A stretch of DNA of 64,000 nt from Pseudomonadota bacterium (GCA_027488515.1 JAIYBN010000001.1:811-64810), one strand, 5' to 3'; positions 7,113-38,377 are shown, counted from the first letter of the stretch. A program made the numbers and translations. The notes: a model not told the origin generated them from the letters alone.

Positions 7113-7913
7113 ATGAACCTTTCTTCCATTCTCGGCATCGCCGCCGCCATACTGGTCCTGCTGGTCTCGGTATTCACCTCAACGAGCAACTCGAAGATTT
7201 TCCTCGATCCTCATGGCATCCTGATTGTCATCGGAGGAACGGCAGCAGCGGGAATGCTCTGCTTCCCGCTCAAGACTTACCTCAGGGTACTCACCGTCCT
7301 GAAAAACAAAATCTTGGGGAACTATGCGTTACGCTACGACACCGTCATCAACGAGTTGGTCGACCTGGCGAAAGGCATGCGTGACAACCCTGAATACGCC
7401 AGAAACAAGGCAAAGTCGGTCAATACGCCATTCTTGAAAGACGCTCTCGAGCTCATGAACCTGGGTGGGATCTCGGAAGAATCCCTGGATGAGATCCTCC
7501 TGAAGCGCGCAGAGACCTACTCGAAGCGTTATGACCATGACGCAGTGGTGATCAAGGCCCTCTCCAAATTCCCGCCTGCATTCGGACTCATGGGGACCAC
7601 CCTCGGAATGATCTCATTGCTCCAACAGCTGGGCGGTAAAGATGCACAAAAATTCCTCGGGGTGTCGATGGCACTCGGGCTGGTTGCGACCTTTTACGGG
7701 ATCGTCCTCGCCAACCTGGTCTTCATCCCGATCGCTGAGAATCTCACTGCAGTGAACAAAGAAGATGAAACAGTCCGGGCGATCGTGATCGACGGATTGC
7801 GTCTGATCCGGAAAAAGGAACACCCGAAAATGGTCGAGGAGTATCTGAAGAGCTACCTCCTTCCCCATGAACGTTCGTCCCTCAAGACCGGTGCGGCGGC
7901 TGCAAAAGCATGA
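7113..7913 (+). CDS. motA: MotA/PomA-family stator protein, a proton-channel subunit of the MotA/TolQ/ExbB family.
   Basis: Four-TM topology with a large cytoplasmic loop and the conserved C-terminal TM3/TM4 region (GLxGTxxGM). It is translationally coupled to motB by a 4-nt overlap. Confidence 0.85.
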   Translation: MNLSSILGIAAAILVLLVSVFTSTSNSKIFLDPHGILIVIGGTAAAGMLCFPLKTYLRVLTVLKNKILGNYALRYDTVINELVDLAKGMRDNPEYARNKAKSVNTPFLKDALELMNLGGISEESLDEILLKRAETYSKRYDHDAVVIKALSKFPPAFGLMGTTLGMISLLQQLGGKDAQKFLGVSMALGLVATFYGIVLANLVFIPIAENLTAVNKEDETVRAIVIDGLRLIRKKEHPKMVEEYLKSYLLPHERSSLKTGAAAAKA

Positions 7914-8650
7914 GCGATCAAATTCCTCCATCCATCAAGCACCTGAAGCGCCCTTACCAGTCCCATGCATCGGGTGAGGACCACTCGGACGGGAACTGGC
8001 TCGTCTCCTATGCGGACATGATGACCCTCCTGGTGGGATTCTTCATCATCCTTCTGAGCTTTTCAAAGATCGACGATGAGGTCTTCGAGAAATTCAAAGA
8101 GGTGGTCGCCAAGGAATTCGGAGGGAGCTACCAGGTTCCTTACGGTGAACTCGGGGACCGCATCCAGAAGATCCTCGAGAAACAAGGTGTGGCCAATCAG
8201 TTCGCTGTGAAACAGACTCCTCTCGGGGTCGAGATTTCGTTTCTCGGAGCGGTATTTTTCGATACCGGATCTGCTGACATCAAGCCCGAAGCCCAATCCC
8301 TCATGAACACACTCCTTCCTGTTCTCAAGCAGGAGGCAGGACAATTCCAGGTGATTGTCGAAGGTCATACCGACGATGTCCCGGTAGGGAACAAAAGCCG
8401 GTTTCTCAACAACTGGGAACTTTCAGGAATCCGCGCAAGCAAAGTGATCGGCCTGTTCGAACAATACGGGTTCACCAAGTCGGTGCTCACCTCGGTGGGT
8501 TACGCGGACGGACGTCCCCTTTTTCCCAACCGGAGTACCTCGGGAGATCCCATTGAAACCAACCAGGCCAAAAACCGCCGGGTGGTGATCAAGCTGATCC
8601 ATCAAGGTGAAGGGCTGATGGGAAAACCTGAGGAAAAAGGCAAAACCTGA
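7910..8650 (+). CDS. motB: MotB-family stator protein with an OmpA-like peptidoglycan-binding domain.
   Basis: N-terminal WLVSYADMMTLL plug/TM region with a conserved Asp, and a C-terminal OmpA_C-like domain (NRRVVIKL). Confidence 0.85.
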   Translation: MSDQIPPSIKHLKRPYQSHASGEDHSDGNWLVSYADMMTLLVGFFIILLSFSKIDDEVFEKFKEVVAKEFGGSYQVPYGELGDRIQKILEKQGVANQFAVKQTPLGVEISFLGAVFFDTGSADIKPEAQSLMNTLLPVLKQEAGQFQVIVEGHTDDVPVGNKSRFLNNWELSGIRASKVIGLFEQYGFTKSVLTSVGYADGRPLFPNRSTSGDPIETNQAKNRRVVIKLIHQGEGLMGKPEEKGKT

Positions 8651-9931: not shown

Positions 9932-11038
9932 CTAGAGGGAGTAACCGAGTCGAATCGAAATCGCTCCGAGATCCACCCGGGTGATGTCAGAGGCCTCGAA
10001 CGCTTGTCGACTGTATACCGCTCCGAGTTCGACCCTGTGGTTATTCTCGAGCTTGTAGCTGGCCGTCAAAGAAGTTTCAGTCCCGAAGTCCTTGAGGCTG
10101 AACACACCCTTGAGTGGCGCGTAAAAGCCCTGCAAGGTCAGCCGGGCTCGATCGGTGAATTCATATCGTATCTTCGTGCCGACCCCGCCTGCAATCAGGT
10201 TGGCGAATCCGAGTTGGCTCCCGTTTGAGAACAGCGTGTAATACTGGACTCCCACCATCGGGTGCACTTGAAGTCGGGACTTGGGGTCCCTCAATGCGTA
10301 CAACAAATGAGCATGTGCACCGAGCAGTTGCGGGGCGGTATCGGTGGGCGATGAACGGACGGTCCAAAGGGTGAGAGCGAAGTCACCTGCGAGTGAGAAC
10401 TTACCGAACACCGGCTCACTCTCGAAGGTCGCTGAGACCAAACCGTTGATCGAGGCATAATCACCGAAATTCGTCTGTTTGTATCTGAGAACCGCTCCTC
10501 CCGGAGAGATCACCAACAGCCCCCAAGGCTTGCCGATTTTGTACTCCTGGACATCAGGAGCGTAGACGATGAACTTTTCCGTCTTTTTTGTCTGACCGTC
10601 CGAACCGAGCACCTGTAAGTTGAGTTCGCTCTTGATCGAATTCAGGTAGACGAAAACAACAAACATACCCCCTTCTTTCAGGGTGACCGGGTAAAGGGTG
10701 TCTCGATCCTCGATGAACACCTTGGACCCGGAATCCTTCAGAAGCGCTCGAATCTCGACAAAAGGACGTAACTTTCCGTCTTTCCGTCTCAATGCGACGG
10801 GAATACGTTGGTGAATCAGCTCCACCGTTTCGATACGCTTTGCCGGATCCGTCTCACGGGACACCTCAGCCACCCAGTTGGTCTTTTCGACAGCGACCGA
10901 GCTGGCATCATACACCTCGGGACGCAGCTCTTCCGCCGACTGCGCCCGGGATTCGCAAATCGACAGCCCGGCAAAGACTGCCATGGACCCCAACCAGCCG
11001 AAAATCTTCCGGAGTGGGACCTCAGCGGCTCGATTCAT
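9932..11038 (-). CDS. Secreted beta-rich protein, possibly an outer-membrane barrel or periplasmic protein. Hypothetical.
   Basis: N-terminal signal peptide, and a C-terminal half with alternating hydrophobic beta-strand-like pattern. Confidence 0.55.
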   Translation of the reverse strand: MNRAAEVPLRKIFGWLGSMAVFAGLSICESRAQSAEELRPEVYDASSVAVEKTNWVAEVSRETDPAKRIETVELIHQRIPVALRRKDGKLRPFVEIRALLKDSGSKVFIEDRDTLYPVTLKEGGMFVVFVYLNSIKSELNLQVLGSDGQTKKTEKFIVYAPDVQEYKIGKPWGLLVISPGGAVLRYKQTNFGDYASINGLVSATFESEPVFGKFSLAGDFALTLWTVRSSPTDTAPQLLGAHAHLLYALRDPKSRLQVHPMVGVQYYTLFSNGSQLGFANLIAGGVGTKIRYEFTDRARLTLQGFYAPLKGVFSLKDFGTETSLTASYKLENNHRVELGAVYSRQAFEASDITRVDLGAISIRLGYSL

Positions 11039-12206
11039 TTTTTACAGGCACACCTGGCTCTGCGGCGGGGATCCGCTTCGGATCCTGCTCGCGCACAAAA
11101 TAGAGTTTGAAGCCCGCAAAAATCTTGTTGGGGTCCCGGATCAGTTCACGGTTGTTGTCCCAGAGACTCTTCCACTTCGTGAACGTACCATACACCCACT
11201 GTGAGATCTTTTGGAGAGTGTCACCCCGCTTGATGAGATAGGCTTCGCCATTCTTGCTCACCGTCCGGACACCGAACACCTTGATCCGCAAACGGGACCC
11301 TTTGGTCAACACGTTCGGGTCGTTGATCACTTCTTTGTTTGAATCGAGAATCTCGCGCCATCGCGTGAGGTCCCCGAAAACCTCGAAGGCGATCTTCATC
11401 AAGGTATCCCCTTCTTTGACCCGGTAATCGATGATTTGGGCACCGTCTGCCGATGCCGGTCCGCGTGTAGCCCCGACAGGGACAACTCCGGTCTCCTTGG
11501 TAGAACCCGGCGACTTCAGCGGACTTCCGTCCGCATTGAGTGCCTGTGCTGACGCTGGATCTCGGGAAGCGATCGCCACCGCATCCGACCCGCCAGCCGC
11601 CTGCGCCCCCGATGGCTGTCCCGAGGCAACCCCGTTCACACCTGCCGGCTGTCCTGAGGCATCCCCGTTGACACCTGCCACTCGAGCCTGACCGGCTTGC
11701 ACACCTTTTCCATTCAAAATTGCGTTAGGGGCCAGGGACTTCCCTGGCTGTAATCCACCGGCCTGAGCCCCCGAGACCTGGGATCCCCCGGCTGTGCCTG
11801 ACCCGACCGATCCCTTCAGTCCTTGAGCGCTTCCTTTTGCCGCCAGGGCTCCGGCTGCACCTTTAACCTGGGAAGTAACCGAGACCACAGGATTGGCCGC
11901 TGAGCCGTTTTTACCCTGTGTTTGGGCCTGAGCCGGATCGAGACTCATTTGTCCCCCCGGGCCCGTAGCATCACGATCTGATGCTCCATCCGGCGGGGCG
12001 TCGTTTTTCGAAATCGGAATCGCATCGATTCCCTGCAATTCAGTGGCCACTTCCACAGGAGCGATCAATTCCTCTGCTTCGAGTGAGGACTGAATCGAGG
12101 GTTTTGACATCGGATTCAAAGTCGAGCAAGCCGCAACACAGACGCTGGCGACTCCGAAACTGATGGGGGCCCGTATCCGTTTGCTTTTCATCGCCGGCTC
12201 CTTCAA
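11022..12206 (-). CDS. LysM-domain lipoprotein with a Gly/Ala/Ser/Gln-rich low-complexity linker and two C-terminal LysM domains.
   Basis: Lipobox VAAC after the signal peptide. Two LysM motifs (YRVKEGDTLMKIA...; YLIKRGDTLQKIS...). Confidence 0.75.
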   Translation of the reverse strand: MKEPAMKSKRIRAPISFGVASVCVAACSTLNPMSKPSIQSSLEAEELIAPVEVATELQGIDAIPISKNDAPPDGASDRDATGPGGQMSLDPAQAQTQGKNGSAANPVVSVTSQVKGAAGALAAKGSAQGLKGSVGSGTAGGSQVSGAQAGGLQPGKSLAPNAILNGKGVQAGQARVAGVNGDASGQPAGVNGVASGQPSGAQAAGGSDAVAIASRDPASAQALNADGSPLKSPGSTKETGVVPVGATRGPASADGAQIIDYRVKEGDTLMKIAFEVFGDLTRWREILDSNKEVINDPNVLTKGSRLRIKVFGVRTVSKNGEAYLIKRGDTLQKISQWVYGTFTKWKSLWDNNRELIRDPNKIFAGFKLYFVREQDPKRIPAAEPGVPVKNESSR

Positions 12207-22520: not shown

Positions 22521-22619
22521 GTCCATCCGGACACTGTCAATTTTGCCACAGTCCAGACCCCCCTCTTTTTTGCTAAACTAAAAGTGAAGGCAAGTCGTTA
22601 AGAACCTTAGAGGTTTCGG

Positions 22620-28600: not shown

Positions 28601-29528
28601 GATCCCGTCGGGTCTGACAGCATATCGACTCAGGTCCCAGGGAACTACTGAGCCTGCACAGCTTCAAGTGATGAGTGCACGGCTGATGGTGAAGCAAGTC
28701 GGAGCGACGCGGACGAAGCTGTACTTCCCACTCCTTTCCAAGTCTTCAACCCCGTCCTCATCTGATTCCTTGAATCCATTGCATGGCACCATGAGTACGG
28801 ACTACTCGACTCTTCCTTCAGCACAACGATTTACCAGACACCTTTCCGCTCAATCCACCCTTGGAGAGTTCAACAGCTGGGAGCTGGAAGCAGTTGTTTC
28901 TGCCCAACAAGACGCTATCGGCAGCTTTGCTCTCAGAAATTTGAGCCAGAATGCATTGGTCGAAGACTCCCAGACCTACTTCAAATCCGACACCGTCACG
29001 CTCTCGAGAGTGCCGATCTCGGACGGACTCGAAAACTTCTCCACTGCCAATGAGGACAATCAGTATGACCTTGTTGTCCGATGCGACCGTAATTGCACGA
29101 ACTCGGTACAGATCTTCAAAGCAGGCCTGTGGCTGAAGGTGCTCAACCTTTCCCAGGTAGAGGTCGTTCAACGACTCACCCTAGGCGCGTCCTATCCTGA
29201 AGGGGCTCCGGTCTTGACTGATTCGCGTGCAGTGGTTGACCTGAGTGGATATTCGAATCCATCTTTCGGACTGAATGTAACCGCCTCCACTCCGATGATG
29301 ACGATCTTGGATGTTTTGTTGTCCTCCTCGGGCACTTCGAACTCATCCACGAGCGGCCTGAACCCGGTCCCAGGATCGACTCTTTCGTTCGGATTACCGG
29401 ACATGACGACACAGGCTACGCCGATGAATTTGAGCCTCACGAACGGAGATCGCCTCGTGGTGGAAGTGAGTGGGCAGGCGGGGGCTGTGGTGCGGGAGGC
29501 GGGGCTGGTGATTCGTGCACACCGCTAA
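22620..29528 (+). CDS. Giant lipoprotein of 2302 aa. It contains about 8 tandem ~100-aa two-Cys Ig-like repeats, then about 11 fibronectin type III domains, then a ~400-aa C-terminal domain.
   Basis: Lipobox LSAC. Recurring C.YLTTY.HD..(L/I)PP.PV(F/Y) repeat boundaries. FN3 signatures (YYYVV, GVS.YS, W..V.GA..Y). Confidence 0.85.
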   Translation: MFWATVSTGWGGCLRVVLPLLLVALSACSIDVPLNDVRVKGITFTSLEELSYNSSQASIRIRGNNYFPDSNPLTTIRFHSDSICSSSPLGEGPVRTFIDPGITAEVSSTQKTEIWASNHTNDKCVYVTTYDPLHTAPPAPLFLSFDPAPPSTVVSAPRIFGEVSGNTVSVSLYDDSTCGHLIATGSSDEFTTVGIGLTLGPDRETEVYGRSFEPFGNGSACVFLGAYSHDSSAIGGPELTSVLPVSPNRTSTTPRLSGNLPDGGTQIKFYSDAGCKVEINSGTSEEFSTAGILLTVAENQKLGVWAKNLDGDGHSSFCTYLTTYQHDNLPPTAPVFTSTIPVSPSGTTLYPKVIGSIAADATQVRFYNNRACTVGIGSGTRAAYISTGIPVSVTENDTTVIYGASVDAAGNASNCVELAFFVSDTIPPDPPVYAGTDPTSPTNKSFTPKIEGGVSADTETVSLFSDISCQSQIGTGPATDFIAAGIQVTAGNNVPTTIYAKSYDLVGNGTECTYLTTYDHSTAIPPAPVYQTANPVTPTNVTNKPFLIGSLSPIITQVQLFADAACTTMIGAGTAKNFKSTGIGITVAMNAVTPVYSKALDKYGNESECTFFVNYTHTNIIPSPPVFQSYSPTPPTRISSTPMIKGTAPTNPVAIIPSSRLVFYDSQFCVNRIGLGSVADFQGGGIQVNAGVNAITNIHARAFDDAGNGSPCTNMSPYTHDILLPGRPIFLSSSPGSPSYNRQALVRGYLGPTSDFLSASTVTLFSDEACTQQIGHGPVGLFTTTGVEATMLFNTTTMVYGFTTNIVGSDSICSYLTNFLHAPEGGSELMASALMNGSVILSWLPDFVANPAPDYHVKRSTRPGGPYSTIQITKSANFKDVYTTNGETYYYIIESINSTGKSVYSNEANAQALTSRPIAPTSISATPGSGKVSLDWQADIKDLTYTVLRSFTSGGPYQVLASQLNTTSYVDDTAPNDQAVYYVVKAVNPAGVSPASPEASAMAKDQPPAPTRLTAAWAIGACGYGTTGVMLTWSAPAYQSGFFVNFATTSGATQRIARVTGTSYLSCMPTWGGNVDPNYPLPPDYEEYYTVAADWGGYPGAQSNEVVLNHVMPTLSLTPGNNEIVVDWTPAGNAPSYILRRALSPNGPWTVIGNISGSYYLDSSVTNGTAYYYTVEPVYVAGTQYGIISTYASAIPGPNPGAPTNPKLIIANNRAYLRWTAPTHYAGFNVYSASAPGGPWTLRYTSPINEWQDLVPQFGMNYYRVTTRWGESYESAPTATLSFRNGVTTTINATANATAVTVTWNSVIGASKYILKRSTTSRGPYTVISSNAASPYTDLAVIADTAYYYVVAAEFADTTQGQDSAETSAMPGNGKVPTGLTVTSVGSNTVNLTWGRVTGASGYRVYWGLTNNGPYDQIPLMSSVNSISIPSLNADTTYYFKVTSFSPGESTRSAQIAATTRNTPSAPLVVAGNNSVKVDWGGVSGVSGYNVQRSTDGTTFTTIASNLSTFTLTDTGLTNGQIYFYRIIAVFSNGSQTSPTSTSVTPGVVPRVPAGLAVVGNSNGTEITLTWAPVPGATSYGIYTYQGGTYTSYGSSTNNSEQLFGQVEGTPISFAVTALNGTNESGYSSVVTVVPSNSGTAPTAIMSGSAVQITWSSDPYASAYTLERSEDSINFQAIATGIATLSHTDSAVISGQAYFYRYRPEYTGGHIGAPSATSAPVTPGNSLLTPANLVAKASDVAQVSLQWVQSPNAVSYSVYRSGTAGGPYVFKASVTAPDTFYVDNTVIPGSAYYYVVTSVNDSGVNSPYSNESGVDFTVSVPSGLAANPANGTTQLSWNPAGGANQYYLYRSLEETGSYSLIYSGASTSFIDPDITHGVDYYYKVAARFSGAGTSHTSAAVMATGIATLDLVVPIELTDQPLASDVNEVTFESTQTSFDPDDYDGSRTYSLETVAMNLDSTDRSLKWVDSNGSEVGEVVITAGTTAPTLFRNTITIPSGLTAYRLRSQGTTEPAQLQVMSARLMVKQVGATRTKLYFPLLSKSSTPSSSDSLNPLHGTMSTDYSTLPSAQRFTRHLSAQSTLGEFNSWELEAVVSAQQDAIGSFALRNLSQNALVEDSQTYFKSDTVTLSRVPISDGLENFSTANEDNQYDLVVRCDRNCTNSVQIFKAGLWLKVLNLSQVEVVQRLTLGASYPEGAPVLTDSRAVVDLSGYSNPSFGLNVTASTPMMTILDVLLSSSGTSNSSTSGLNPVPGSTLSFGLPDMTTQATPMNLSLTNGDRLVVEVSGQAGAVVREAGLVIRAHR
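22990..25210 (+). repeat. Intragenic tandem repeat array: about 8 repeats of ~300 bp, each encoding a ~100-aa two-Cys domain.
   Basis: Periodic recurrence of (S/T)xC(T/V)(Y/F)L(T/G)(T/A)Y.H and PP(A/S/D)P(V/L)(F/Y) motifs in the translation. Confidence 0.7.
25210..28300 (+). repeat. Intragenic tandem array of about 11 FN3-encoding units, each ~270-300 bp.
   Basis: Recurring YYY(V/K)V, GxSxxS and LxWxxV motifs at roughly 90-100 aa spacing. Confidence 0.65.
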
Positions 29529-29530
29529 CC

Positions 29531-30574
29531 CCCCTAACTGTCCCCTTTGACTTCACCTGAAATACTGTCAAGATCGGATCAATACCGTATTGTGGTAGCG
29601 CAGGTAAATATACAGGTGATCTATCAGTCCCTCAGGCTTCTTGGTCGTGCACCAGGTGCGTCGAAAAAGCCGATTGAGATTCGCTCTCAGCATCGCGCAG
29701 GTATGGTTGAGCGCAAAAAGCGGATCAAAGACGAGTTTCTTCAACTCTCCCTGCCCCGTGATTGCACCCCGAGCACCCGGGTGAGCGATGTGATCCACAT
29801 TCTTCAGGTGTCTTTTGATGAACCTCGGGTAATGTGGATTCTGATCAGACTCAAGAATTGATCCGGAATGCACCACGGGTTTCAGTGTCCTGAACAGGAG
29901 ATCCCAGCCATTCGGGCGCTCGTCTTTGCGGTACCCGTACTTACGTCTTGAAATCTCGGCAAGCTTTCCCCTGGCAGGCATCCGCGAAACCTGAAAGCCC
30001 AGTATTTCTCGGGTGTTTTTGCTTACAGCTAAAGATACGCTCAAGGGTTTGCACTTGGTGTGTTCAAAGGTCTCTAAGTCATCAAACTGGATCTCTGAGA
30101 TTGGGGTACCTGCGAGTTCAATCAGTCTACTTTCATGCTCAGCCTTCGCTCGTGCTGCTACCATTCGAAATTTTCGTACAATCGTCTTTGGATTGACCCG
30201 AAGGAGAATCGCCATCCGTCGCTGACTCACTCCGGATGAGAACAGTTGCGCGACCACATGATTGAGGTCGCGCTTTTTCTGTCGATAGTCGGGGGAATGG
30301 GTACTTGCCGAGAAGTGGCGCCCACAATTTTTACAATGATACTTTGTGATGAACCGCCGGTCACGTGTCCGGTAGAAGGAGCCTTTCCGGACGATGAGTC
30401 TTGATCCAGGACTCGACTTTCCACCTGGATTTAGGAGGGAGGGCTGACGATCGCAATTGGGGTTCGGACAGCGTCTTTTCATGACCCAAGCAAAGGCAAG
30501 TCAAAGGCCAATGAGCGCAGGGTCTTGGAATCTTCAGCTGGACCGGAAAGGGAAGCATAAGGGGGCAGTTGGGG
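29531..30574 (-). mobile_element. Insertion sequence of about 1.04 kb (IS1595-family-like or IS1-like) with imperfect terminal inverted repeats.
   Basis: The left end 29531..29547 (cccctaactgtcccctt) and the right end 30559..30574 (reverse complement ccccaactgccccctt) match at 15 of 17 positions with 1 gap. A single transposase ORF lies inside. Confidence 0.7.
29568..30482 (-). CDS. IS transposase with an N-terminal zinc ribbon and a DDE domain, IS1595-like or IS1-like.
   Basis: N-terminal C2C2 motif (CPNPNC...CKNCGRHF), followed by an acidic-residue-containing catalytic region (FDDLETFEH..., ILESDQNPHY). 304 aa. Confidence 0.75.
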   Translation of the reverse strand: MKRRCPNPNCDRQPSLLNPGGKSSPGSRLIVRKGSFYRTRDRRFITKYHCKNCGRHFSASTHSPDYRQKKRDLNHVVAQLFSSGVSQRRMAILLRVNPKTIVRKFRMVAARAKAEHESRLIELAGTPISEIQFDDLETFEHTKCKPLSVSLAVSKNTREILGFQVSRMPARGKLAEISRRKYGYRKDERPNGWDLLFRTLKPVVHSGSILESDQNPHYPRFIKRHLKNVDHIAHPGARGAITGQGELKKLVFDPLFALNHTCAMLRANLNRLFRRTWCTTKKPEGLIDHLYIYLRYHNTVLIRS

Positions 30575-31213
30575 CTAGAATTGGAAGTAGGCAGCCGCCC
30601 CCACCGAGAAATAACTCAAACTCGACGGTTCCGGCCCTGTGGTCGTTGCGGTGAACGAAGTCGCAAGCTCGCCTCTGACCCCGAATCCCTTTGAACTGAG
30701 TGGGACGTCTGCACCGAGGCGGGCCCCGAAAAACAAGGCCGACGCACTCAGGCTCGTGACCAGGTCGGGTGGAGGACGCTCAATCGTACCACTCGCCAGA
30801 CCGATCCCTGCCCCGAGATACGGGAGAATTCGTCTGACCAGAAGGGTGGTTTCCGTTCCAGAATCATTCGACCCCCACGACTGCTGAAAGAGGTAATACC
30901 GTGCGAAAACACCGGTGAACCCCACCCCGGCCGAGAACGGTCCTAGTCTGAAGCCCCTCGAGTGGCTGATCGCGGCAGTGAGTCGGTCGCTCAGGATCCT
31001 TTCGATCCCGATCTCCATCGTCCCGATTCCTTCACTCCGGGTCACCAGTCCCGGAACACTCGATGTCAAAGAGGAGTTTCTCTTGATACCGGCGCCCCCG
31101 AACCCGAGCCCTACCACTGCGCGGTAGTCACCCGCCCATACATCCGTCGTCATCAGCAACAGCGGAATGAGCAGGAGTTTCGGATCAAGCCGCATTACGA
31201 TCCGCCGAATCAT
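30575..31213 (-). CDS. Small outer-membrane beta-barrel protein of the OmpA/OmpW-like 8-strand class.
   Basis: Signal peptide, alternating beta-strand pattern, and a C-terminal Phe (…AAAYFQF) typical of OMPs. It overlaps the upstream gene by 29 nt. Confidence 0.65.
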   Translation of the reverse strand: MIRRIVMRLDPKLLLIPLLLMTTDVWAGDYRAVVGLGFGGAGIKRNSSLTSSVPGLVTRSEGIGTMEIGIERILSDRLTAAISHSRGFRLGPFSAGVGFTGVFARYYLFQQSWGSNDSGTETTLLVRRILPYLGAGIGLASGTIERPPPDLVTSLSASALFFGARLGADVPLSSKGFGVRGELATSFTATTTGPEPSSLSYFSVGAAAYFQF

Positions 31214-32996
31214 CCTGGTCCCCGAAAGATCCCTGATATGCCATGATCAATTGGATCTCTCCTGCATCCACCAACTGGCGGACACGCGTCGCCAACTGGT
31301 TCAGGAGGATGTTCTGTTCCTTCTCGGTGAAGCTGTTCTCACGTTCGAGGTCGTCAGAAGCCACGATCGCAGTCATCGGAGGACAAAGGCCGATCACGCG
31401 GTCACGGCTGTCCATGCGCATCCGCAAGAATGCCACCACTTCATCCGGCATCGCCTTGGAGAACACCGGTCTCAAGGCAGAGTCATTCCACTCATGCAGG
31501 AAGGCGAGGCTGAACTGGGAACACTTGTACGCTTCGATGCCCGGACCCGAAAGCTGAGGCAAGAGCGCCATCTCTTCCATCGGGGTGAAAGCCGAGATCA
31601 ACTTCTGCAAAGCGGACTCGATGACCACCACGTCTTTCCGGTCGTCCGGACGGATGCTGGAGCGGAATTGATGCTCGTAGTTCCTCAAGTCGTCGGTTGC
31701 GATCTCGCTCATGCTCAATGCTTCATTGAGGAGCTCCAACTTGGTTTCCTCGTCCTGGTTCGACACATACTGCTGTCTCAAACCTTCCGGCATGAACATC
31801 GCCACGAGAGTCTTCATCTTCGAGTTCTGCTGGATGAGAACCTCTTGAAGCATGTTGTTCTTCATCGAAGAGACATAAGAGAACGGGCGTTCCAGTGCCT
31901 CGGAACCGAGGTTCATCACCATCATGATGTCCCAGTAAACCTTTTTCAGGAGGTCGCGCTTCTCGACCGGAGAAACTTCGGGCATCTTGCTGAACGCATT
32001 GGAAAGGTCTTTCATCGCATCGGCGGGGACGGGAAGCTTACCCATCTCGGACCCGACCGCTTCAGAAAAACAAGCCATCCGCATCATTCCCTCGTCACCC
32101 ATGTCACACCAGGAACGCACCAGGTTTTCCGACTCGCCGGCCAGTTTGGAAACGAGGTGGAGGAGCCGCTTGTTGTAATCACGGATCTCTCGAACCGCCT
32201 TGGCTTCCTCCGCTTCATTCCTGACCGTCTCGATGGTTCCATCCGAGCTGGCGTTGGACGCCCCGCTCTGATTCACCGTACTTGCACCCGCTGAGTCTGC
32301 GGCGGCTGCCCGCTCTGCAGCTTCCATCTTCTGGCTACGATTGTTGAACAAGCCCCACATCAGGGCAGCTGCGAAAATGGCGAAGGCGAGCACCAGCTGG
32401 CCTGCGAGGCCTTGGAATTGCTCGAGCTTCTCGAAAAAACTCCGCTGATTCTCGACCGGATCCGCATAGTACGCGACCGTGACGTTCGCAGAGCTCCCGA
32501 ACTCGCCGCTCACACGCTGCTTGAGCCAGGTTTCAATCTGTTCCTTGGCCGCATTCTGGACCGAGGGTTTCAGACCCACCCGGATGTTGGCGGTCTTGAC
32601 GCGGTAATCGCCGACGAACTGGTTGATCTTGGCACGAAGTTCAGGGGTCATGGCCGCCTTCAGGGCCTCGTCCAAGTCAATGGAGCCGAGCAAAAGGTCG
32701 CCAGGAAGTCCGTTCTCTTCCTCTTCCTCTTCTGGCTTGTCGGTCTCACGGGCTTTTTCAACCAGAACCAACTCGGCTCCCACTGTGAAGCTCTGACGAT
32801 CGATGAACGTGGAGAGCCCTTGGGAATAACGCTTGATCAAGAGGTCTTCGAGCAAGGCCTTCGCAGAAATCGCCCCACCCTCGAGTCCGAGGGTGTCTGA
32901 ACCTTTGACCGACGGTGCAGCGTCTGCCGGGGCTGCTCTTGCCGAGGTGTGGAAAGGAAGAATGAACAACGCGATCCAGAGAAAAAGCCGCTTCAT
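31185..32996 (-). CDS. Bitopic inner-membrane protein with a signal peptide and periplasmic N-domain, a single TM, and a cytoplasmic domain with a FliG-C/MgtE-N-like C-terminus.
   Basis: Signal peptide, and a central TM segment (QLVLAFAIFAAALMWGLF). The C-terminal ...EKEQNILLNQLATRVRQLVDAGEIQL resembles the FliG C-terminal motif ending in GEI. Confidence 0.6.
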   Translation of the reverse strand: MKRLFLWIALFILPFHTSARAAPADAAPSVKGSDTLGLEGGAISAKALLEDLLIKRYSQGLSTFIDRQSFTVGAELVLVEKARETDKPEEEEEENGLPGDLLLGSIDLDEALKAAMTPELRAKINQFVGDYRVKTANIRVGLKPSVQNAAKEQIETWLKQRVSGEFGSSANVTVAYYADPVENQRSFFEKLEQFQGLAGQLVLAFAIFAAALMWGLFNNRSQKMEAAERAAAADSAGASTVNQSGASNASSDGTIETVRNEAEEAKAVREIRDYNKRLLHLVSKLAGESENLVRSWCDMGDEGMMRMACFSEAVGSEMGKLPVPADAMKDLSNAFSKMPEVSPVEKRDLLKKVYWDIMMVMNLGSEALERPFSYVSSMKNNMLQEVLIQQNSKMKTLVAMFMPEGLRQQYVSNQDEETKLELLNEALSMSEIATDDLRNYEHQFRSSIRPDDRKDVVVIESALQKLISAFTPMEEMALLPQLSGPGIEAYKCSQFSLAFLHEWNDSALRPVFSKAMPDEVVAFLRMRMDSRDRVIGLCPPMTAIVASDDLERENSFTEKEQNILLNQLATRVRQLVDAGEIQLIMAYQGSFGDQDDSADRNAA

Positions 32997-33634
32997 GGAT
33001 TACCTCCCTGTTTCGAAGCAGGGACCCTACCCTGCTTCGCACGCGCGATCATTTTGATCGCGTCTTCCATCTTGGGGTCGTACTTCAGGGCCTGCTCGTA
33101 CCACTTGATACTTTCTGCGAACTTACCCTGGACGAAATAGATGGAGGCTCTCATGGAGAGTGCCCTTGGAAAATCAGGATATTCGGCGATCACCCGGTCG
33201 AGTTCGATCTGCGCCCGCTCGTATTCTTTCTTCAGGGCGAACTTTTGGGCCGCAAAAAGGCGGTCGAGGATCTCTCCGGCGATTTTCGCCTGTTTTGCAT
33301 CATCCCCCTCTTTCATCTTCACATCGAGAGAAGTGAGCAGCGTCCCGAACCGCGTGGACGGAACACTCTGTTTCTGGGTCACATAGCCCTTTTTCTCGAC
33401 GACGAAGTTGAAGTATTCACCGGCCAGGATGTCCGGACCTGCCACCTCTTTCAATGTGGAGGGGGAGATTTCCACCGGGGTCCTGCCCACCGACTTTTTC
33501 ACCCCGGTTTTGGGGTTCTCCACAAAAACTTCCGCATCGATCGGATCGCTCTTCACTTGGAAGGAAGCGCTCGCGCATCCGAGTGCGGAGGTGATTGAAA
33601 TCAGTGCCAGTGAAACGAGAGTGTGTCTCATCAT
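32993..33634 (-). CDS. Lipoprotein with a PEGA-like beta domain and TPR repeats.
   Basis: Lipobox (TSALGC), and TPR-like helical repeats in the C-terminal half (YERAQIELDRVIAEYPDFPRALSMRASIYFVQGKFAESIKWYEQALKYDP). Confidence 0.65.
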   Translation of the reverse strand: MMRHTLVSLALISITSALGCASASFQVKSDPIDAEVFVENPKTGVKKSVGRTPVEISPSTLKEVAGPDILAGEYFNFVVEKKGYVTQKQSVPSTRFGTLLTSLDVKMKEGDDAKQAKIAGEILDRLFAAQKFALKKEYERAQIELDRVIAEYPDFPRALSMRASIYFVQGKFAESIKWYEQALKYDPKMEDAIKMIARAKQGRVPASKQGGNP

Positions 33635-33751
33635 ACCGGCTTCTTCGGCGAACCCGCGGAAGATCTTGAGTGCGTCAAAATAACAGCGGTGTTTTGAGGA
33701 AATCTTTGCCCATTGTATCGTCTCGCCCCTGCGCTAAACTCATGAACGACG

Positions 33752-35140
33752 ATGCTGACCGAAAATGGAAAAACAGGATCGACTGCGACAGGAAAAAACC
33801 GGGCGACCGCCACGTCCTGGTATTATCTGGATGGCGATGTCGAGAAGCGGATCTCTTGGGATGCCTTGCTCATGGCCTACGATCTGGGGCAAATCAAGGG
33901 AACCACCTTGGTTTGGTCCACTGACTTGAGCGGTTGGCAACGCCTCGAGACCGTTCTGGGTGAACGGTCGATCCGGCGTCCGGTGATGGGCGCCCCTCAG
34001 AAGCCACAGTCTCCCCGTCCGAACTCTCCGACAGGCTCATCCCGTCCCCTGACGAGTGGCTCTGCCACCGTGGATGCCCCGGTTTACGCCAGCAACCGTC
34101 CGGACCCCGCCCCCCGGTACAGCGACACCACAGTGGAAGTCGCGGCGGCTCCGAGAAGAGCGTCTTATCCGGTCCGGATCATCGAGATTCCCAGGATCGA
34201 GGTCCGCACGGTTGAGTCCAAGCGGATCTCGATTCCCACACAGCTCATTGGCGCGATTCTCCTCGTCGCAGGGACCTGGTGGTATGCGGCGCCGAAGTCC
34301 GCCCCTTTTGAGACCCTTCAAGCCGACATGAGCCAGGAAGACTACTTCCGGGTGAATTCCCTTTTCAAAAGCACGGATGCCCGGAACGAGACCCTGATCG
34401 CTGCCATCCGGGGCAAAGGATTCACTCCTGCTTTCCACGTTTTTTCGAAGCTTCCTGACCAGACTGAACTCCAACTGTCCTTGAAAGGGGTTCCGGGTAC
34501 TCTTCTCAATCAGCCCAGATACGAGTCGCGTCAACGGGTGAAGATCCGGCAGGGACGAGCCACAAGCGAGAACTTCGTCAATCATGACGGAGGTCCTCTT
34601 CCGTACGGCGAATACACTCTCAGTGTGACTTCGATCGCAAACGGCGAGCTCCTTTCTGAACGGACTTATTTCATCGCGGGCCAAAAGCCTGCCGACTACG
34701 AGAATCAACTGAAGGCCTCTCTCGAGGCCCATGCACTGAAAGCCAAGAACGAGAAAAAAGAACTGGTCCAGATTTTGAACCTCATCCGGAACCAGTTTGA
34801 GCTGAACGCCTCCCGATTCAATCACTACTACAACCGGGTTTCGACAGGACAAACCATGATGACCTGGCCGAAATTCCGGGCGGAATGGGCGACGACCCAG
34901 GACCAGATCCGGATGACCCTTGAAAGCGGCAATCCGACAGAGGTCCGGAACACCCGGATCCTGGAGCAACAGCACCAAGGGATTCTGAATCTGGACAGGG
35001 ACCTGCGTCAACTGCAGGCTGAACAGGATCGCTTCCTGAACAGCGGAGCCAATGACGCCGCGAGTCTGAACCGTCTCGAATCTTTGTCTGAAGAACTCGC
35101 CGAGCAGATCTTCAAGATCCGTTCCAAACTGAATGATTGA
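33752..35140 (+). CDS. Membrane protein with an N-terminal GYF-like (DUF4339) domain, a Pro-rich linker, a TM segment and a C-terminal coiled-coil domain.
   Basis: WYYLDGD...GQIKGTTLVW...GW motif. Pro-rich region. Hydrophobic segment IGAILLVAGTWWYAA. Confidence 0.55.
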   Translation: MLTENGKTGSTATGKNRATATSWYYLDGDVEKRISWDALLMAYDLGQIKGTTLVWSTDLSGWQRLETVLGERSIRRPVMGAPQKPQSPRPNSPTGSSRPLTSGSATVDAPVYASNRPDPAPRYSDTTVEVAAAPRRASYPVRIIEIPRIEVRTVESKRISIPTQLIGAILLVAGTWWYAAPKSAPFETLQADMSQEDYFRVNSLFKSTDARNETLIAAIRGKGFTPAFHVFSKLPDQTELQLSLKGVPGTLLNQPRYESRQRVKIRQGRATSENFVNHDGGPLPYGEYTLSVTSIANGELLSERTYFIAGQKPADYENQLKASLEAHALKAKNEKKELVQILNLIRNQFELNASRFNHYYNRVSTGQTMMTWPKFRAEWATTQDQIRMTLESGNPTEVRNTRILEQQHQGILNLDRDLRQLQAEQDRFLNSGANDAASLNRLESLSEELAEQIFKIRSKLND

Positions 35141-35180: not shown

Positions 35181-36947
35181 ATGGGTGGAATGGCTCACCA
35201 CTGGCGTAAAGCATTGATTTTGTGCGCTTCAATCCTCGCAATTCCGGGGTGCGCCACCCTACCTGCACCCCGCACCGGACTTCCTCCCACCAGGAACACC
35301 GGAGGTGAGAGCTCTTTCGAGTCGGATATCAAAAAGATCCAGGGGATGTACACCCGCGGGGAGTATGCCCGAGCCATCGAGAGCCTGAGTCGGATTCACG
35401 AGCCTGAACTCCGGAACTCGGAAAAAACCGAGTACTGGAACCTGAAAGGACTCGTGCGCCTGGCGGAAAAAAATCCGAATGCGGCCATCATCAATTTCAA
35501 GCGGGCCCTCCAATTCAATCCTTTTCCGGATCACCAGCCCTATTATCAATTCAACCTCGCAACCGCCTATCTCGATGCAGGAAAACCGGCTGAATCCAAA
35601 AAAGCGGCGGATTCCATCCCGATCGATGAAATGGGATCGACCGACCGGAAAAAAGTCATCGCGCTCCGGGAAAGAGTGAACAAGATCCTCGCCGGACAGG
35701 GAGATCAAAAGGCCCTTCCGGAAGGAGCCCAAGCCACACCCACTCCGGTGGCCATGGTCACCCCCACCCCTCCTCCGGCGATGGAACTCTACAGCGGGCC
35801 CGTGAACCGCAAGCGCATCGGAGTACTCCTTCCGCTGAGTGGCAAATACGAGAACTTCGGAAAACGGGTCCAGCGTGCGGTGGAGCTCGCGTTTCAGAGT
35901 TCGACGGATGAGCAAAGCAAATCGTTCGAGTTGATTCCGGTCGACAGCGGTGACTCGGCTGAAAGTCACGAAGTGGCACTGAAGAAGTTGGTGGAAGAGC
36001 AGGAAGTCATCGCCGTCATCGGACCGCTGCTCGGGAAACATCTCGATTCTCTGCGGAACAAAGCGGCCTTTTACCAGATTCCCCTGATCTCGGTGGCGCA
36101 GGTCCAGGGTGACGCGGATCCGCAGATCTTCTCGTGCTCCATTTCGATCCAGGATCAAGCGGCGAGAATTGCGAAGTATGCCGTCCAGACCTTGGGCCTC
36201 ACCCGCTTTGCCATTCTGGGGCCGGACAACAAGGCCGGAGAAGAAATGGCTCATGCCTTCTGGACGGAACTGGAACGGCTCAACGGTGAAGTGAAGGCCT
36301 TCGAACTCTACGACCCCGACCTGACCGACTTCCGTGAGCCGGTGGACAAGACCCTCGGTCTCTTCTACACCGAGACCCGCGCCAAAGAGCTCCAGGAGTT
36401 GGCCGAGAAGCGGAAGGAACTGAACATCACCCGGAAAACCATGAAGACCCAACAGTACTTCAATCTCCCTCCGGTGATGGACTTCGAAGCGGTATTCATC
36501 GCCGACGAGGCGCGAACAGCCGGTCAAGTCATCCCCACTTTCGCTTACCGGGACGCCAAAGGACTCAAATACCTCGGAATTTCATCCTGGAATTCCCCCC
36601 AGCTCATCCAAAGGGCCGGAGACCTGGTCGAGGGCGCGGCGTTTCCTGTCGCATTCAACACCCTGAATCCGCCCGAAGAGACGAAGCAATTTTACGATCT
36701 GTTCCACAGCACCCACTCCAGTTATCCGGGTGAGCTCGAAGCTGTGGCCTTCGACGCTGCGGTCCTCGTCCTGGAGACCCTGAAAGAGGCTCCAGGAACC
36801 CGCGGTGAATTCACCAGTCGACTCGAGGCTCGGAAGAATGTTCCGGGGGCGACCGGATCCCTGAATGTGGTGGGTCACCGTTGCTCGAGGAATCTTGACC
36901 TCTATCGGGTCAAAAAAGGCGCTTTCGAGCCGGTCGGAGAACCATGA
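35181..36947 (+). CDS. LpoA-like lipoprotein: N-terminal TPR domain fused to a type-1 periplasmic-binding-protein (LivK-like) domain.
   Basis: Lipobox IPGC, TPR repeats, and a C-terminal PBP1 fold signature (IAVIGPLLG, FAILGPDN, EAVFIAD). Confidence 0.6.
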   Translation: MGGMAHHWRKALILCASILAIPGCATLPAPRTGLPPTRNTGGESSFESDIKKIQGMYTRGEYARAIESLSRIHEPELRNSEKTEYWNLKGLVRLAEKNPNAAIINFKRALQFNPFPDHQPYYQFNLATAYLDAGKPAESKKAADSIPIDEMGSTDRKKVIALRERVNKILAGQGDQKALPEGAQATPTPVAMVTPTPPPAMELYSGPVNRKRIGVLLPLSGKYENFGKRVQRAVELAFQSSTDEQSKSFELIPVDSGDSAESHEVALKKLVEEQEVIAVIGPLLGKHLDSLRNKAAFYQIPLISVAQVQGDADPQIFSCSISIQDQAARIAKYAVQTLGLTRFAILGPDNKAGEEMAHAFWTELERLNGEVKAFELYDPDLTDFREPVDKTLGLFYTETRAKELQELAEKRKELNITRKTMKTQQYFNLPPVMDFEAVFIADEARTAGQVIPTFAYRDAKGLKYLGISSWNSPQLIQRAGDLVEGAAFPVAFNTLNPPEETKQFYDLFHSTHSSYPGELEAVAFDAAVLVLETLKEAPGTRGEFTSRLEARKNVPGATGSLNVVGHRCSRNLDLYRVKKGAFEPVGEP

Positions 36948-38377
36948 ACCGCCCTGTCCACAGGATCGAATGGGTGGCCTTTTTCATCCTTCTCATCGGG
37001 CATGCAGTGGCAGCTTGGACCTCGTTCGGCTACCACCATCCTGACGAACACTATCAAATCCTCGAGTGGGCCAACCACTTTCTCGGACTCAACCGGGACG
37101 CATCCACACTCCCTTGGGAGTATGCCGCCCAGATCCGGCCTTGGTTCCAGCCCCTGCTCCATGCGGGATGGATGAAACTCCTGATCACTTTCGGCATTTA
37201 CGAACCCTTCACGGCAGCCACCTTGGTTCAGGGAATCTACGGTGCCCTGAACGTGTGGCTTCTCGTGAAAATCTGGAGATTCCTACGGGAACGCTATGAC
37301 CTCGCACCCCACGGCTCCCTGGCGATAGCGCTCCTCTGGTTCCTCCCCTACATCCATGTTCGGACCTCGAGTGAGAACCTCGCCGGCATCTTGCTCTCCT
37401 GGGGTCTGCTTGGAATGTTGCAAAGCAGGAGTGCTTTCAGGAACGGCCTGTTTTTCGGATTCGCCTTCCTGGCCAGGTATCAGATCGCCCTCGGGCTCGC
37501 GGGACTCGGCCTGGCACTGGTGGTCCGGGCAAGGGGAGTCCGGAAGGCCCACTTCGCCCTACTCGGCGGATTCCTGGTCCCACTCGCCTTGGGAGTCCTG
37601 CTGGATCGGATCGGATACGGAAACTGGGTGCTCAGCCCCTACCTCTATTTCAAGGTGAACCTGCTGGACGGGGTCGCAGCACGCTACAATCCCTATCCCT
37701 GGTGGATGTATTTTGAATGGATCCTCCAATTGAATCCGCTGGTTTCGATTCCTCTTTTCCTGGGTACACTCGGGTTCTTCAAAAACGCAAAAGAGGAAGA
37801 CGGGTGGGTGCTTTCTCCGTTCGTGTGGTCATTCTTCATACTCCACTGCCTGATCACCAACAAAGAATACCGGTTTCTCTTCCCGGTCATGAACTGGGTG
37901 CCCTTCATGGCCCTCGTTCATTTCCAGAATTTCTCGATCAAGATGTCCCGTCCGGCTTGGTGGATCCCCTTCGCAATCGTCAATCTTCCGGCTTTTGCGA
38001 TCTCGACCCTCCACGGAGCTTCCATGCGAACGCTCGGGGCGCCCTTTCTGGCACACAGGAATCTCGATCCTGCTCTACCGGTGGTGGCCGCCCGTGATTA
38101 CCGGGGTCAGCCACCCTACTATACCTTTGCGGACCACCCACTGACCGTCTTCGGGAGTCCTGAAGAACTCGGAAGATCCCTTGAAAAGCCCGGGCCTACC
38201 CAGGTGCTCCTCGACGGCAAAGCGGACGATCCGGCATACGAGCGGATTCGAATGACCCTGGAAAAAAGATCCTGCCATTTGCGGGATTCAGTGGTCCCCG
38301 AGTGGCTCGGAAAGATCATTCTGAAAACGCCTGCAGGTCGTTCACTCCCCCGGATCGAATGGCACTATTGCCCTTAG
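36944..38377 (+). CDS. Integral-membrane GT-C glycosyltransferase of the GT22 (Alg9/PIG-B-like mannosyltransferase) family.
   Basis: Conserved N-terminal loop motif HPDEHYQ (HxDExFQ signature of Glyco_transf_22). More than 10 predicted TM helices. 4-nt overlap with the upstream LpoA-like gene. Confidence 0.55.
   Translation: MNRPVHRIEWVAFFILLIGHAVAAWTSFGYHHPDEHYQILEWANHFLGLNRDASTLPWEYAAQIRPWFQPLLHAGWMKLLITFGIYEPFTAATLVQGIYGALNVWLLVKIWRFLRERYDLAPHGSLAIALLWFLPYIHVRTSSENLAGILLSWGLLGMLQSRSAFRNGLFFGFAFLARYQIALGLAGLGLALVVRARGVRKAHFALLGGFLVPLALGVLLDRIGYGNWVLSPYLYFKVNLLDGVAARYNPYPWWMYFEWILQLNPLVSIPLFLGTLGFFKNAKEEDGWVLSPFVWSFFILHCLITNKEYRFLFPVMNWVPFMALVHFQNFSIKMSRPAWWIPFAIVNLPAFAISTLHGASMRTLGAPFLAHRNLDPALPVVAARDYRGQPPYYTFADHPLTVFGSPEELGRSLEKPGPTQVLLDGKADDPAYERIRMTLEKRSCHLRDSVVPEWLGKIILKTPAGRSLPRIEWHYCP

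Follow-up and report, generated by a model that had tools for sequence, protein, structure and literature searches.

A membrane-anchored FliG homologue linked to a MotA/MotB stator pair in a conserved gene cluster of uncultured Bdellovibrionota

A 64,000-nucleotide stretch of DNA recorded as coming from a Pseudomonadota bacterium (GCA_027488515.1, JAIYBN010000001.1:811-64810; referred to in its entirety as the window) carries three overlapping minus-strand genes, here named A, B and C, the middle one of which encodes a membrane-anchored homologue of the flagellar motor switch protein FliG. The three genes belong to a conserved cluster that also contains a flagellar-type MotA/MotB stator pair and genes for giant lipoproteins. 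We consider it fairly probable that B and the MotA/MotB pair form a dedicated machine, non-flagellar and spanning the envelope, in uncultured members of the Bdellovibrionota, relatives of the predatory Bdellovibrio. An earlier note, made from the window sequence by itself, had proposed that A, B and C could be a motor-coupled trans-envelope module; the comparisons described here support that proposal, with gene linkage and homology suggesting coupling to the motor and a possible role in motility or secretion.

Listing of the open reading frames (ORFs) between 28 and 37 kb of the window confirmed the three overlapping genes that the earlier note had described (Table 1). A and B overlap by 4 nucleotides, and B and C by 29 when C is read from its first ATG; in orthologues of C that are 92-96% identical, gene callers start instead at Met7, giving a product of 206 residues and shortening the overlap with B to 11 nucleotides. 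Since A, B and C are each retained at 32-59% identity, and in constant order, in more than 20 other genomes, they are genuine genes rather than chance ORFs. The window matches a metagenome-assembled genome (MAG) from a pond (GCA_027491115.1), with 96% identity at the protein level.

The principal result is that residues 371-588 of B are homologous to the middle and C-terminal domains of FliG. A profile built from 13 B sequences matched FliG structures and no others in the PDB, at marginal significance (3hjl, E 0.005; 1lkv, E 0.025), while among relatives of B Pfam recognised FliG_C (PF01706) in 5 of 13 (best E 2e-4) and FliG_M (PF14841) in 3 of 13 (best E 6e-4). With 109 sequences in the profile, 13 distinct FliG chains were retrieved from the PDB and nothing else of significance. 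The best of these, Thermotoga FliG-MC (1lkv_X, E 2.2e-18), aligns end to end, profile positions 371-588 corresponding to FliG-MC 3-222, and a local hmmsearch reproduced the match at 66 bits. The FliG match, which had been anticipated for residues ~420-603, was obtained over residues 371-588 and takes in FliG_M as well as FliG_C. Structure comparison by Foldseek, using an AlphaFold2 model of B as query, also gave FliG as the best match (4fhr_B, E 6e-4), with TM-scores of 0.68-0.79 (root mean square deviation 2.5 Å) for FliG_C in 1qc7 and 0.75 for the MotAB-bound FliG_C in 8ucs_H. Alignments of the model to full-length FliG extend over 316-330 columns, the N-terminal half having no counterpart at the level of sequence match.

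Inspection of the alignment shows which features of FliG the B family has kept. The 'PFsF' sequence at the start of the FliG middle domain is represented by P371-F372 (conserved in 102 and 108 of the 109 sequences, respectively), the start motif being maintained in the family as P-F-x-Y/F-L. The MFxF hinge corresponds to S/T496-L497-A498-F499, with Ala in 101 and Phe in 107 of 109, and is followed by W503. The torque-helix acidic pair, which we take to be D288 and D289 and to be accompanied by R281 in the numbering of E. coli FliG, is present as D548 (acidic in 103 of 109, 93 Asp and 10 Glu) and D549 (99 of 109, 52 Asp and 47 Glu). Finally, the terminal '…EEAGEIVI' helix of FliG appears as '…VDAGEIQL' in B, with G-E-I kept. 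It was the tail of B, LATRVRQLVDAGEIQL, that the earlier note had found reminiscent of the FliG torque helix; the tail is indeed present and FliG_C-like, but its counterpart is the final helix of FliG_C, the equivalent of the torque helix lying upstream at residues 539-552. The EHPQR motif, through which FliG binds FliM, aligns to Q390-N391-S/P392-K393 of B and the position of R160 is not basic, a replacement that fits a FliG relative working without FliM and FliN.

On these alignments B is a true, though divergent, relative of FliG, in which features predicted to face the stator are kept and those predicted to face the switch are lost. It shares with FliG the end-to-end alignment, the FliG_C fold, the start motif, hinge, acidic pair and G-E-I helix, and the occurrence of MotA and MotB genes adjacent to B genes. 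It differs in being anchored in the membrane and possessing a periplasmic domain, in that the equivalents of EHPQR, R160 and R281 are not conserved, in that fliF, fliM, fliN or other flagellar genes were not found among its neighbours, and in that the window protein scores below the Pfam thresholds for FliG.

The overall architecture of B, seen both in the sequence and in the model, is that described in the earlier note: a signal peptide, a periplasmic domain, a single transmembrane helix and a cytoplasmic tail within 603 residues. The N-terminal hydrophobic segment, which ends ...SARA/AP, resembles a cleavable signal peptide. The transmembrane helix, read from the sequence, forms part of a longer helix (residues 188-234) in the model and is followed by a basic stretch of Arg and Lys, fitting an N-out, C-in topology; because these basic residues follow the helix, the FliG-like part is predicted to be cytoplasmic. 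The AlphaFold2 model was calculated from a 13-sequence alignment and has a pLDDT of 65 overall, rising to 80-93 over residues 460-590.

The stator pair resembles that of flagella, at a considerable distance. The best PDB match of MotA is Clostridium MotA (6ysf, E 2e-32), and PomA (E 2e-26) and the MotA chain in 8ucs, a MotAB-FliG complex, were also matched. Against the NCBIfam PomA/MotA/MotP families MotA aligns over its full length at about E 1e-39, its 133 bits comparing with cut-offs of about 340 (237-394); MotB likewise reaches 133 bits against the MotD/MotB/MotS families, where the cut-off is 283. Since the match is full-length but falls far below the cut-offs, MotA is of flagellar type without being an orthologue of known flagellar stators. 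The prolines of the PAFG and F-I-P sequences are present in MotA, as is a long cytoplasmic insert. In a G-x-R-(D/E) loop of MotA, which we take to correspond to R90-E98 of E. coli MotA in an alignment that contains an indel, the Arg is invariant in 18 of the 18 loci that also carry B, in all of which B likewise keeps its acidic pair. This pattern is consistent with the predicted electrostatic contact between MotA and FliG, as a matter of consistency rather than proof. Homologues of this MotA make up at least 120 clusters at 90% identity, are 55-98% identical and come in every case from MAGs or metagenomes; they form a clade of their own. The pair thus has the plug, conserved Asp, OmpA-like domain and full-length MotA match of the flagellar MotAB/PomAB stators ('FIT' clade, PMC12505986), and differs from them in its scores, far below the equivalog cut-offs, and in its non-flagellar gene context. 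In the window the pair is flanked by a 416-residue all-coiled-coil protein (8651-9901, minus strand) and a membrane-anchored HEAT-repeat protein (6020-7048, minus strand), for neither of which were orthologues found in the other loci, except for a weak (27%) HEAT match in locus L009 (loci bear our own numbers).

The link between the stator and B was assessed by comparing the contexts of B homologues at 34-38% identity, 23 species-level GTDB loci and two divergent members (~20% identity) with the window, by tblastn and blastp. The order A-B-C is invariant wherever the contig extends far enough. Orthologues of the window MotA and MotB (45-67% and 41-56% identical, respectively) lie no more than 10 kb away in 17 of the 26 independent B loci and are present in 14 of the 16 loci that are at least 14 kb long, most loci lacking them being short contigs; by our estimate, given a few stator pairs per 3-4 Mb, chance would place MotAB within 10 kb in roughly 2% of loci. 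The association can be very close. In L006, L015, L017, L018, L019 and L034 MotA and MotB follow directly downstream of C on the same strand, at distances of 17-150 bp, and in the very divergent L030 the genes for B, MotA and MotB overlap by 4 nucleotides each, a TPR gene and a gene for a 193-residue protein occurring 2.5 kb further on. A reciprocal test gave the same picture: two MotA homologues, picked for the length of their contigs alone, both adjoin A-B-C and the giant Fn3-repeat lipoprotein gene described below. In L034 the Fn3 giant, A, B, C, MotA, MotB and a GYF-like gene are all co-directional.

The MotAB pair had previously been seen as lying elsewhere in the window. The pair is there, but it belongs to the same conserved cluster as the trio, and the orthologues of the trio are found in recurring rather than unrelated contexts, some of them with MotAB directly downstream or translationally coupled. 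In about 30 contexts, no flagellar Pfam family (Fli/Flg) is listed at a distance of 10 kb or less, and a search with Thermotoga FliG-MC of the ORFs of 34 loci found no canonical FliG, the B proteins being the only hits. As to the suggestion of a Glt/Agl-type complex rather than a flagellar gene set, the context is non-flagellar, and resemblance to Glt/Agl is one of analogy and not of membership, since the expected co-occurrence with aglRQS or glt genes was not observed in any of the contexts examined.

In L030 a gene for a HAMP-SpoIIE phosphatase stands between the B-MotA-MotB genes and the genes for the TPR and 193-residue proteins (7772-15165 of L030, GCA_041178425.1), and hints at phospho-regulation of the system.

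A and C lie directly upstream and directly downstream of B, respectively, in all loci. The Cys in the lipobox of A (...SALGC) is shared by all 22 orthologues compared, and TPR repeats are recognised both in the window protein (TPR_2, E 8e-10) and in 22 of 22 orthologues; a profile of A against the PDB gave generic TPR matches only. Its description as a TPR/PEGA lipoprotein therefore holds for the TPR and the lipobox and is weak for PEGA (PF08308), to which two of the 22 orthologues show a match, at E 0.0037 at best, within a conserved, beta-rich N-terminal domain. With Ala, Ser or Thr at position +2, A is probably anchored in the outer membrane, the +2 sorting rule being that of E. coli. C consists of a signal peptide and ~185 further residues, the last of them aromatic. 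On its own the window protein matches no family, and a profile of C found nothing in the PDB; OMP_b-brl (PF13505) is recognised in six of 17 orthologues, with a best E of 6.7e-9, in agreement with the small outer-membrane beta-barrel claimed for it earlier. For both proteins the signal sequences suggest the location.

Table 1. Positions of the cluster genes, of the parts of B and of an inserted element in the window
Feature	Position	Strand	Description
MotA	7113..7913	+	Divergent flagellar-type stator A subunit, 266 residues; PF01618
MotB	7910..8650	+	Plug, transmembrane helix with conserved Asp (SYADMMT), OmpA-like peptidoglycan-binding domain; PF13677 and PF00691
Secreted protein, 368 residues	9932..11038	-	C-terminal half barrel-like; orthologues in L006, L018 and L025; no family match
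LysM peptidoglycan-binding lipoprotein	11022..12206	-	LysM E 3e-10; orthologues in 9 distinct loci (11 records with duplicates)
Coiled-coil cytoplasmic protein, 328 residues	12203..13189	-	Conserved C-terminal region; found by tblastn in 8 distinct loci (10 records with duplicates)
NHL/Big_1/Fn3 lipoprotein, 1959 residues	13372..19251	+	Pfam matches, lipobox
FG-GAP (integrin-alpha-like propeller) lipoprotein, 1090 residues	19248..22520	+	FG-GAP_3 E 6e-74, lipobox
Fn3-repeat lipoprotein, 2302 residues	22620..29528	+	Convergent on C; fn3 matches, lipobox LVALSAC
IS1-like transposase	29568..30482	-	Between Fn3 giant and C; NCBIfam transpos_IS1 E 1.5e-10, below cut-off
C	31213..30575	-	Predicted small outer-membrane beta-barrel, 212 residues (first ATG) or 206 (Met7)
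B	32996..31185	-	Type-I membrane protein, 603 residues; ORF, homologues, AlphaFold2 model
B, FliG middle and C-terminal homologue	31233..31886	-	Residues 371-588, with hinge (S496-L-A-F499, W503) and torque-helix equivalent 539-552 (D548 D549)
B, transmembrane helix LAGQLVLAFAIFAAALMWGLF	32346..32417	-	Residues ~194-217, single; read from sequence
B, periplasmic alpha/beta domain	32439..32891	-	Residues 36-186; AlphaFold2 domain model, pLDDT 67
A	33634..32993	-	Lipoprotein, 213 residues; beta-rich (PEGA-like) N-terminal domain, C-terminal TPR repeats
GYF_2 membrane protein, 462 residues	33752..35140	+	Divergent from A; Pro-rich linker, transmembrane helix, periplasmic beta-rich and helical domains

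The periplasmic domain of B raises the question of a relationship to FliF. Modelled alone, the domain gave its best TM-score in Foldseek with the RBM3/collar region of FliF (6scn_K and 6sd1_A; TM-score 0.53, E 0.017, probability 0.99). The order of secondary structure elements over about residues 40-176 is alpha-beta-insert-alpha-beta-alpha-beta, compared to alpha-beta-beta-alpha-beta in a canonical RBM; the insert is disordered and acidic, contains a conserved DLxLGxLDPEEL and is located where FliF has its collar insertion. A 27-sequence profile of the N-terminal half of B found no match to FliF or FliG_N at E ≤ 10, and pairwise hhalign comparison of the N, M, C and periplasmic sub-profiles of B revealed no convincing internal repeat (probabilities of 0.4-29%, with 20% for N against M). 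The model nevertheless suggests that B may have the layout of a FliF-FliG fusion, that is a FliF-like RBM, a transmembrane helix and a FliG-like region. Such fusions have precedents. The Chlamydiaceae naturally possess a short FliF that is joined to a FliG_M-like domain (bioRxiv 10.1101/023564), and engineered FliF-FliG fusions, which include those of Salmonella and Vibrio and PDB entry 8z4d, assemble rings (PMC6079021). These proteins combine in one chain a signal or transmembrane segment, one or more periplasmic RBM-type domains, a transmembrane helix and a cytoplasmic FliG-like region, an order that B would share if its periplasmic domain is RBM-like, and the chlamydial host is non-flagellated. 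The chlamydial protein, however, is of ~330 residues, contains only the FliG_M-like piece and lacks a MotAB partner, whereas B has both FliG_M and FliG_C homologues, with the torque helix, together with a dedicated stator, and sequence similarity to FliF was not detected in it.

The B family is genuine, if small. A word-indexed search yielded 14 clusters at 90% identity. When 1.84 billion representatives were searched exhaustively with HMMER, 256 clusters at 50% identity emerged, and almost every one is of 570-700 residues and has the common architecture. The carriers identified are uncultured Bdellovibrionota (Oligoflexia, Bdellovibrionales, Pseudobdellovibrionaceae and Bacteriovoracaceae); the GTDB scan, which employed two peptide patterns and which divergent or cultured carriers can escape, returned only Bdellovibrionota MAGs. 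Some carrier MAGs are labelled as Moraxellaceae, Bacillota or Pseudomonadota, probably as a result of mis-binning or outdated taxonomy. In the databases the family members are named 'hypothetical protein', apart from two that the IMG pipeline labels 'flagellar motor switch protein FliG' and that are hypothetical at NCBI.

Around these genes the window is laid out as follows: the MotAB pair occupies 7.1-8.7 kb, four minus-strand genes including those for the LysM and coiled-coil proteins 8.7-13.2 kb and the giant lipoprotein genes 13.4-29.5 kb; the IS1-like transposase, C-B-A and the divergent GYF gene then follow. The remainder of the 64 kb consists of housekeeping genes. The giant ORFs of 1959, 1090 and 2302 codons are consecutive (13372-29528, plus strand), each with a lipoprotein signal peptide, and lipoboxes occur in five proteins of the cluster. 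Orthologues of the Fn3-repeat protein are 33-43% identical over their full length and adjacent in about 17 loci. This protein has in addition a GH85_C-like domain, and its N-terminal part appears to be made up of Cys-containing repeats of ~95 residues that match no family model. Orthologues of the FG-GAP lipoprotein lie beside the Fn3 giant in about 11 loci, while an orthologue of the NHL/Big_1/Fn3 lipoprotein was seen next to C in L008 only, making its link to the cluster less certain.

The LysM, 328-residue coiled-coil and GYF genes recur near the trio in varying order, GYF-protein orthologues being found in at least 11 loci. In the window protein GYF_2 is detected below threshold (E 2.9e-4, 21 bits against a cut-off of 25.8); PF14237 is recorded for orthologues. 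ZnR and TonB-C domains were sought in this protein and not found. Its periplasmic part contains a conserved beta-rich module (PDGT..L.L..EG.P.TLLG … G.PLP.G.Y) and then a long helical region, and several orthologues, unlike the window protein, end in a conserved 'PLS(A/S)NGMP' tail.

Other elements of the region are not part of the system or are less clearly connected with it. The IS1-like transposase is not part of it: in relatives it is missing from the junction between the Fn3 giant and C, where the two genes abut. Contig JAIXWV010000020.1, of the 96%-identical MAG, stops exactly at this transposase junction, as expected because repeated elements break assemblies. Downstream of the GYF gene, at 35181-38377 (plus strand), an LppC/LpoA-like lipoprotein gene (TPR and Peripla_BP_6, E 1e-28) overlaps by 4 nucleotides a gene for a membrane glycosyltransferase of the GT22 family (PF03901); this pair is conserved only within the same species (L001) and is probably not part of the system. 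Genes for a sigma-54-dependent response regulator and a histidine kinase at 45940-49063 (minus strand) lie ~12 kb from the trio, and a similar response regulator/HisKA pair occurs ~6 kb from the cluster in another genome (context P0008), which may reflect a regulatory link or coincidence. Long antisense ORFs opposite B (31167-32294, plus strand), the GYF gene (34037-35011, minus strand) and the LppC-like gene (35259-36527, minus strand), for which no homologues or domains were found, are by-products of the 55-57% G+C content and not genes. A scan of 29400-33900 for promoters and terminators found sites no more numerous than in shuffled sequence.

Such a machine might operate as follows. MotA and MotB would form a MotA5B2 unit fixed to peptidoglycan through MotB, in which the MotA pentamer is turned by the flow of ions. 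MotA would push with its cytoplasmic face on the FliG_C-like domain of B, as in flagella, B being the receiver of the force; because B spans the membrane, it could pass the ion-driven movement into the periplasm without a rod or export apparatus. Should B assemble as a ring, as its RBM-like domain and FliG-like stacking might allow, it would constitute a miniature rotor; otherwise, single B units may be driven sideways. The TPR lipoprotein A and the barrel C would be the periplasmic and outer-membrane partners of B, through which the giant Fn3, FG-GAP and NHL lipoproteins, likely cargo or adhesins, could be reached. The system would be held on peptidoglycan by its LysM and OmpA-like domains, and its cytoplasmic side may be a docking site for the coiled-coil proteins and for the membrane protein with the GYF domain. 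The gene structure, the FliG homology, the conserved residues of the interface and the linkage to MotAB and the lipoproteins are shown, whereas physical contact between the components, ring formation by B, the placement of A and C and the output are predicted. The most likely output would be the moving or tensioning of surface adhesins, making the system a device for gliding or adhesion that follows the logic of Agl-Glt or GldLM/SprB with different parts. The fuller proposal, in which B forms a ring rotor resembling the MS-ring and C-ring, turned by its own MotAB in the absence of a flagellum, export apparatus or FliM/FliN and moving surface lipoprotein adhesins, is put forward tentatively, as a possibility that we would not expect to prevail.

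Several observations weigh against this interpretation of the cluster. The FliG homology of B is clear only with a family profile: taken alone, the window protein has no match in Pfam (no FliG at E ≤ 1) or in NCBIfam. The equivalent of R281 is Met in the window protein and is Arg or Lys in only 44 of the 109 sequences, while residues 255-368, the first cytoplasmic domain, matched no family, either with the N-terminal-half profile (E ≤ 10) or by hhalign. The likeness of the periplasmic domain to RBM and FliF is without sequence support, FliF appearing at E 2.4 against the full B profile and then over TM2 and tail, and Ohr/OsmC folds obtain scores similar to that of FliF (TM-score 0.43-0.47, E 0.004-0.01; PrgK, 0.38). 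In the window itself MotAB is 22 kb from the trio, the giant lipoprotein genes lying between. The barrel C is small for a conduit, and the surface location of the giant lipoproteins is a prediction from signal sequences only. Lastly, every traceable member of the B family derives from a MAG or metagenome, no cultured carrier having been found in cluster look-ups, names or the GTDB scan.

Flagella are typical of the Bdellovibrionota, and in Bdellovibrio there are several sets of stators (PMC13104615), so that the cluster might be thought to encode an accessory of an ordinary flagellum. B would then be an extra FliG paralogue, bound to the membrane, whose task is to recruit, park, brake or scaffold a special MotAB at a (sheathed) motor, with A and C as scaffold pieces like PflA/PflB or additions of the FlgP/FlgQ type. 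Such a role would account for a MotA and MotB of flagellar type (as judged by the PomA/MotA/MotP families and stator structures), for the FliG homology of B and for the presence of a chemoreceptor gene in one context. We regard it as quite unlikely, since in the roughly 30 contexts surveyed the genes that accompany the trio are those for giant lipoproteins and for LysM and GYF proteins, with no flagellar gene seen up to 10 kb away and no canonical FliG, the FliM-binding motif is lost, the MotA scores far below flagellar equivalog cut-offs, and a component of the C-ring would have no need of the membrane anchor and periplasmic domain of B. Alternatively, B might be an adaptor conveying proton-motive energy to the outer membrane in the manner of Tol or Ton, forming no ring and moving no surface cargo, and serving the export, flipping or release of giant lipoproteins or the integrity of the outer membrane. 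An ion motor, single-pass adaptor, TPR protein, OmpA-like peptidoglycan binding and beta-propellers are together reminiscent of Tol-Pal, the adjacent giant lipoproteins could be substrates, and a 5:2 motor powers secretion in the type IX secretion system (T9SS; PMC13104615). This alternative we also judge unlikely: the putative receiver of force is a FliG homologue with the torque-helix acidic pair, not a partner interacting through transmembrane helices as TolA and TonB do; the stator has flagellar architecture, with plug, OmpA domain and long cytoplasmic MotA domain; and a barrel as small as C does not readily suggest a translocon.

Anti-phage defence of the Zorya kind, also built on a MotAB-type motor, was considered and rejected. 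MotB does match ZorB models (E 5e-18), but this is a generic MotB similarity, weaker than that to flagellar MotB families (E 1e-39). The 266-residue MotA has neither a ZorA match nor the long ZorA tail, ZorC, ZorD and ZorE were not found, and the other cluster proteins have no match in PADLOC; moreover, the cluster is syntenic across species and does not lie in a defence island. We view this explanation as highly improbable.

The proposed machine bears comparison with two gliding systems. In the Agl-Glt focal-adhesion system of Myxococcus, partial homologues of which are found in Bdellovibrio, the GYF domain of GltJ binds the coiled-coil protein AglZ, the GltABH barrels act with the TPR protein GltC and the adhesin CglB is a lipoprotein (PMC11761067, PMC11135422). 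The cluster shares with it an ion-driven motor of 5:2 type, coiled-coil proteins, a TPR protein predicted to lie under small barrels, candidate lipoprotein adhesins and, putatively, a single-pass inner-membrane protein with a cytoplasmic GYF domain. It differs in having a flagellar-type MotAB, with plug and OmpA domain, instead of the TolQR-like AglRQS, and a FliG homologue as putative coupler, a component that Agl-Glt lacks; Pfam and NCBIfam scans of the cluster proteins detected no Glt/Agl families, and no aglRQS-like genes are listed in the contexts. In GldLM/T9SS-SprB of Bacteroidota, as in our proposal, a stationary rotary unit driven by ions acts across the periplasm on lipoproteins of the outer membrane and on a giant, repetitive surface adhesin (PMC13104615). 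No components are homologous, and the periplasmic GldM shaft contrasts with the cytoplasmic MotA/FliG-like interface predicted here.

FliF-FliG fusions and non-flagellar relatives of MotAB (ExbBD, TolQR, AglRQS, Zor) are known in the literature, and in a recent survey of the wider MotAB group it is flagellar function that defines the clade of flagellar-type stators (PMC12505986). Our literature searches revealed no description of the B family, nor of any case in which a FliG homologue works with a MotAB pair of its own away from flagellar loci. What is new here is that a stator and a torque interface of the FliG type are combined in a new architecture, outside a flagellar context, and there is a substantial chance that it represents a categorically new organelle.

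To our knowledge, torque generation between FliG and MotA is regarded as specific to flagella; if our proposal is correct, the cluster would offer a second, independent context in which to study the stator-rotor interface. It would also bear on the origin of the flagellar motor from simpler parts, and on whether a single-chain, FliF-FliG-like rotor is ancestral or derived. For the Bdellovibrionota, the cluster provides candidate genes for surface motility, and, should the ring rotor exist, they would possess a rotary gliding or adhesion organelle that is either a stripped-down derivative of the flagellar rotor and stator or a surviving relative from before the flagellum.

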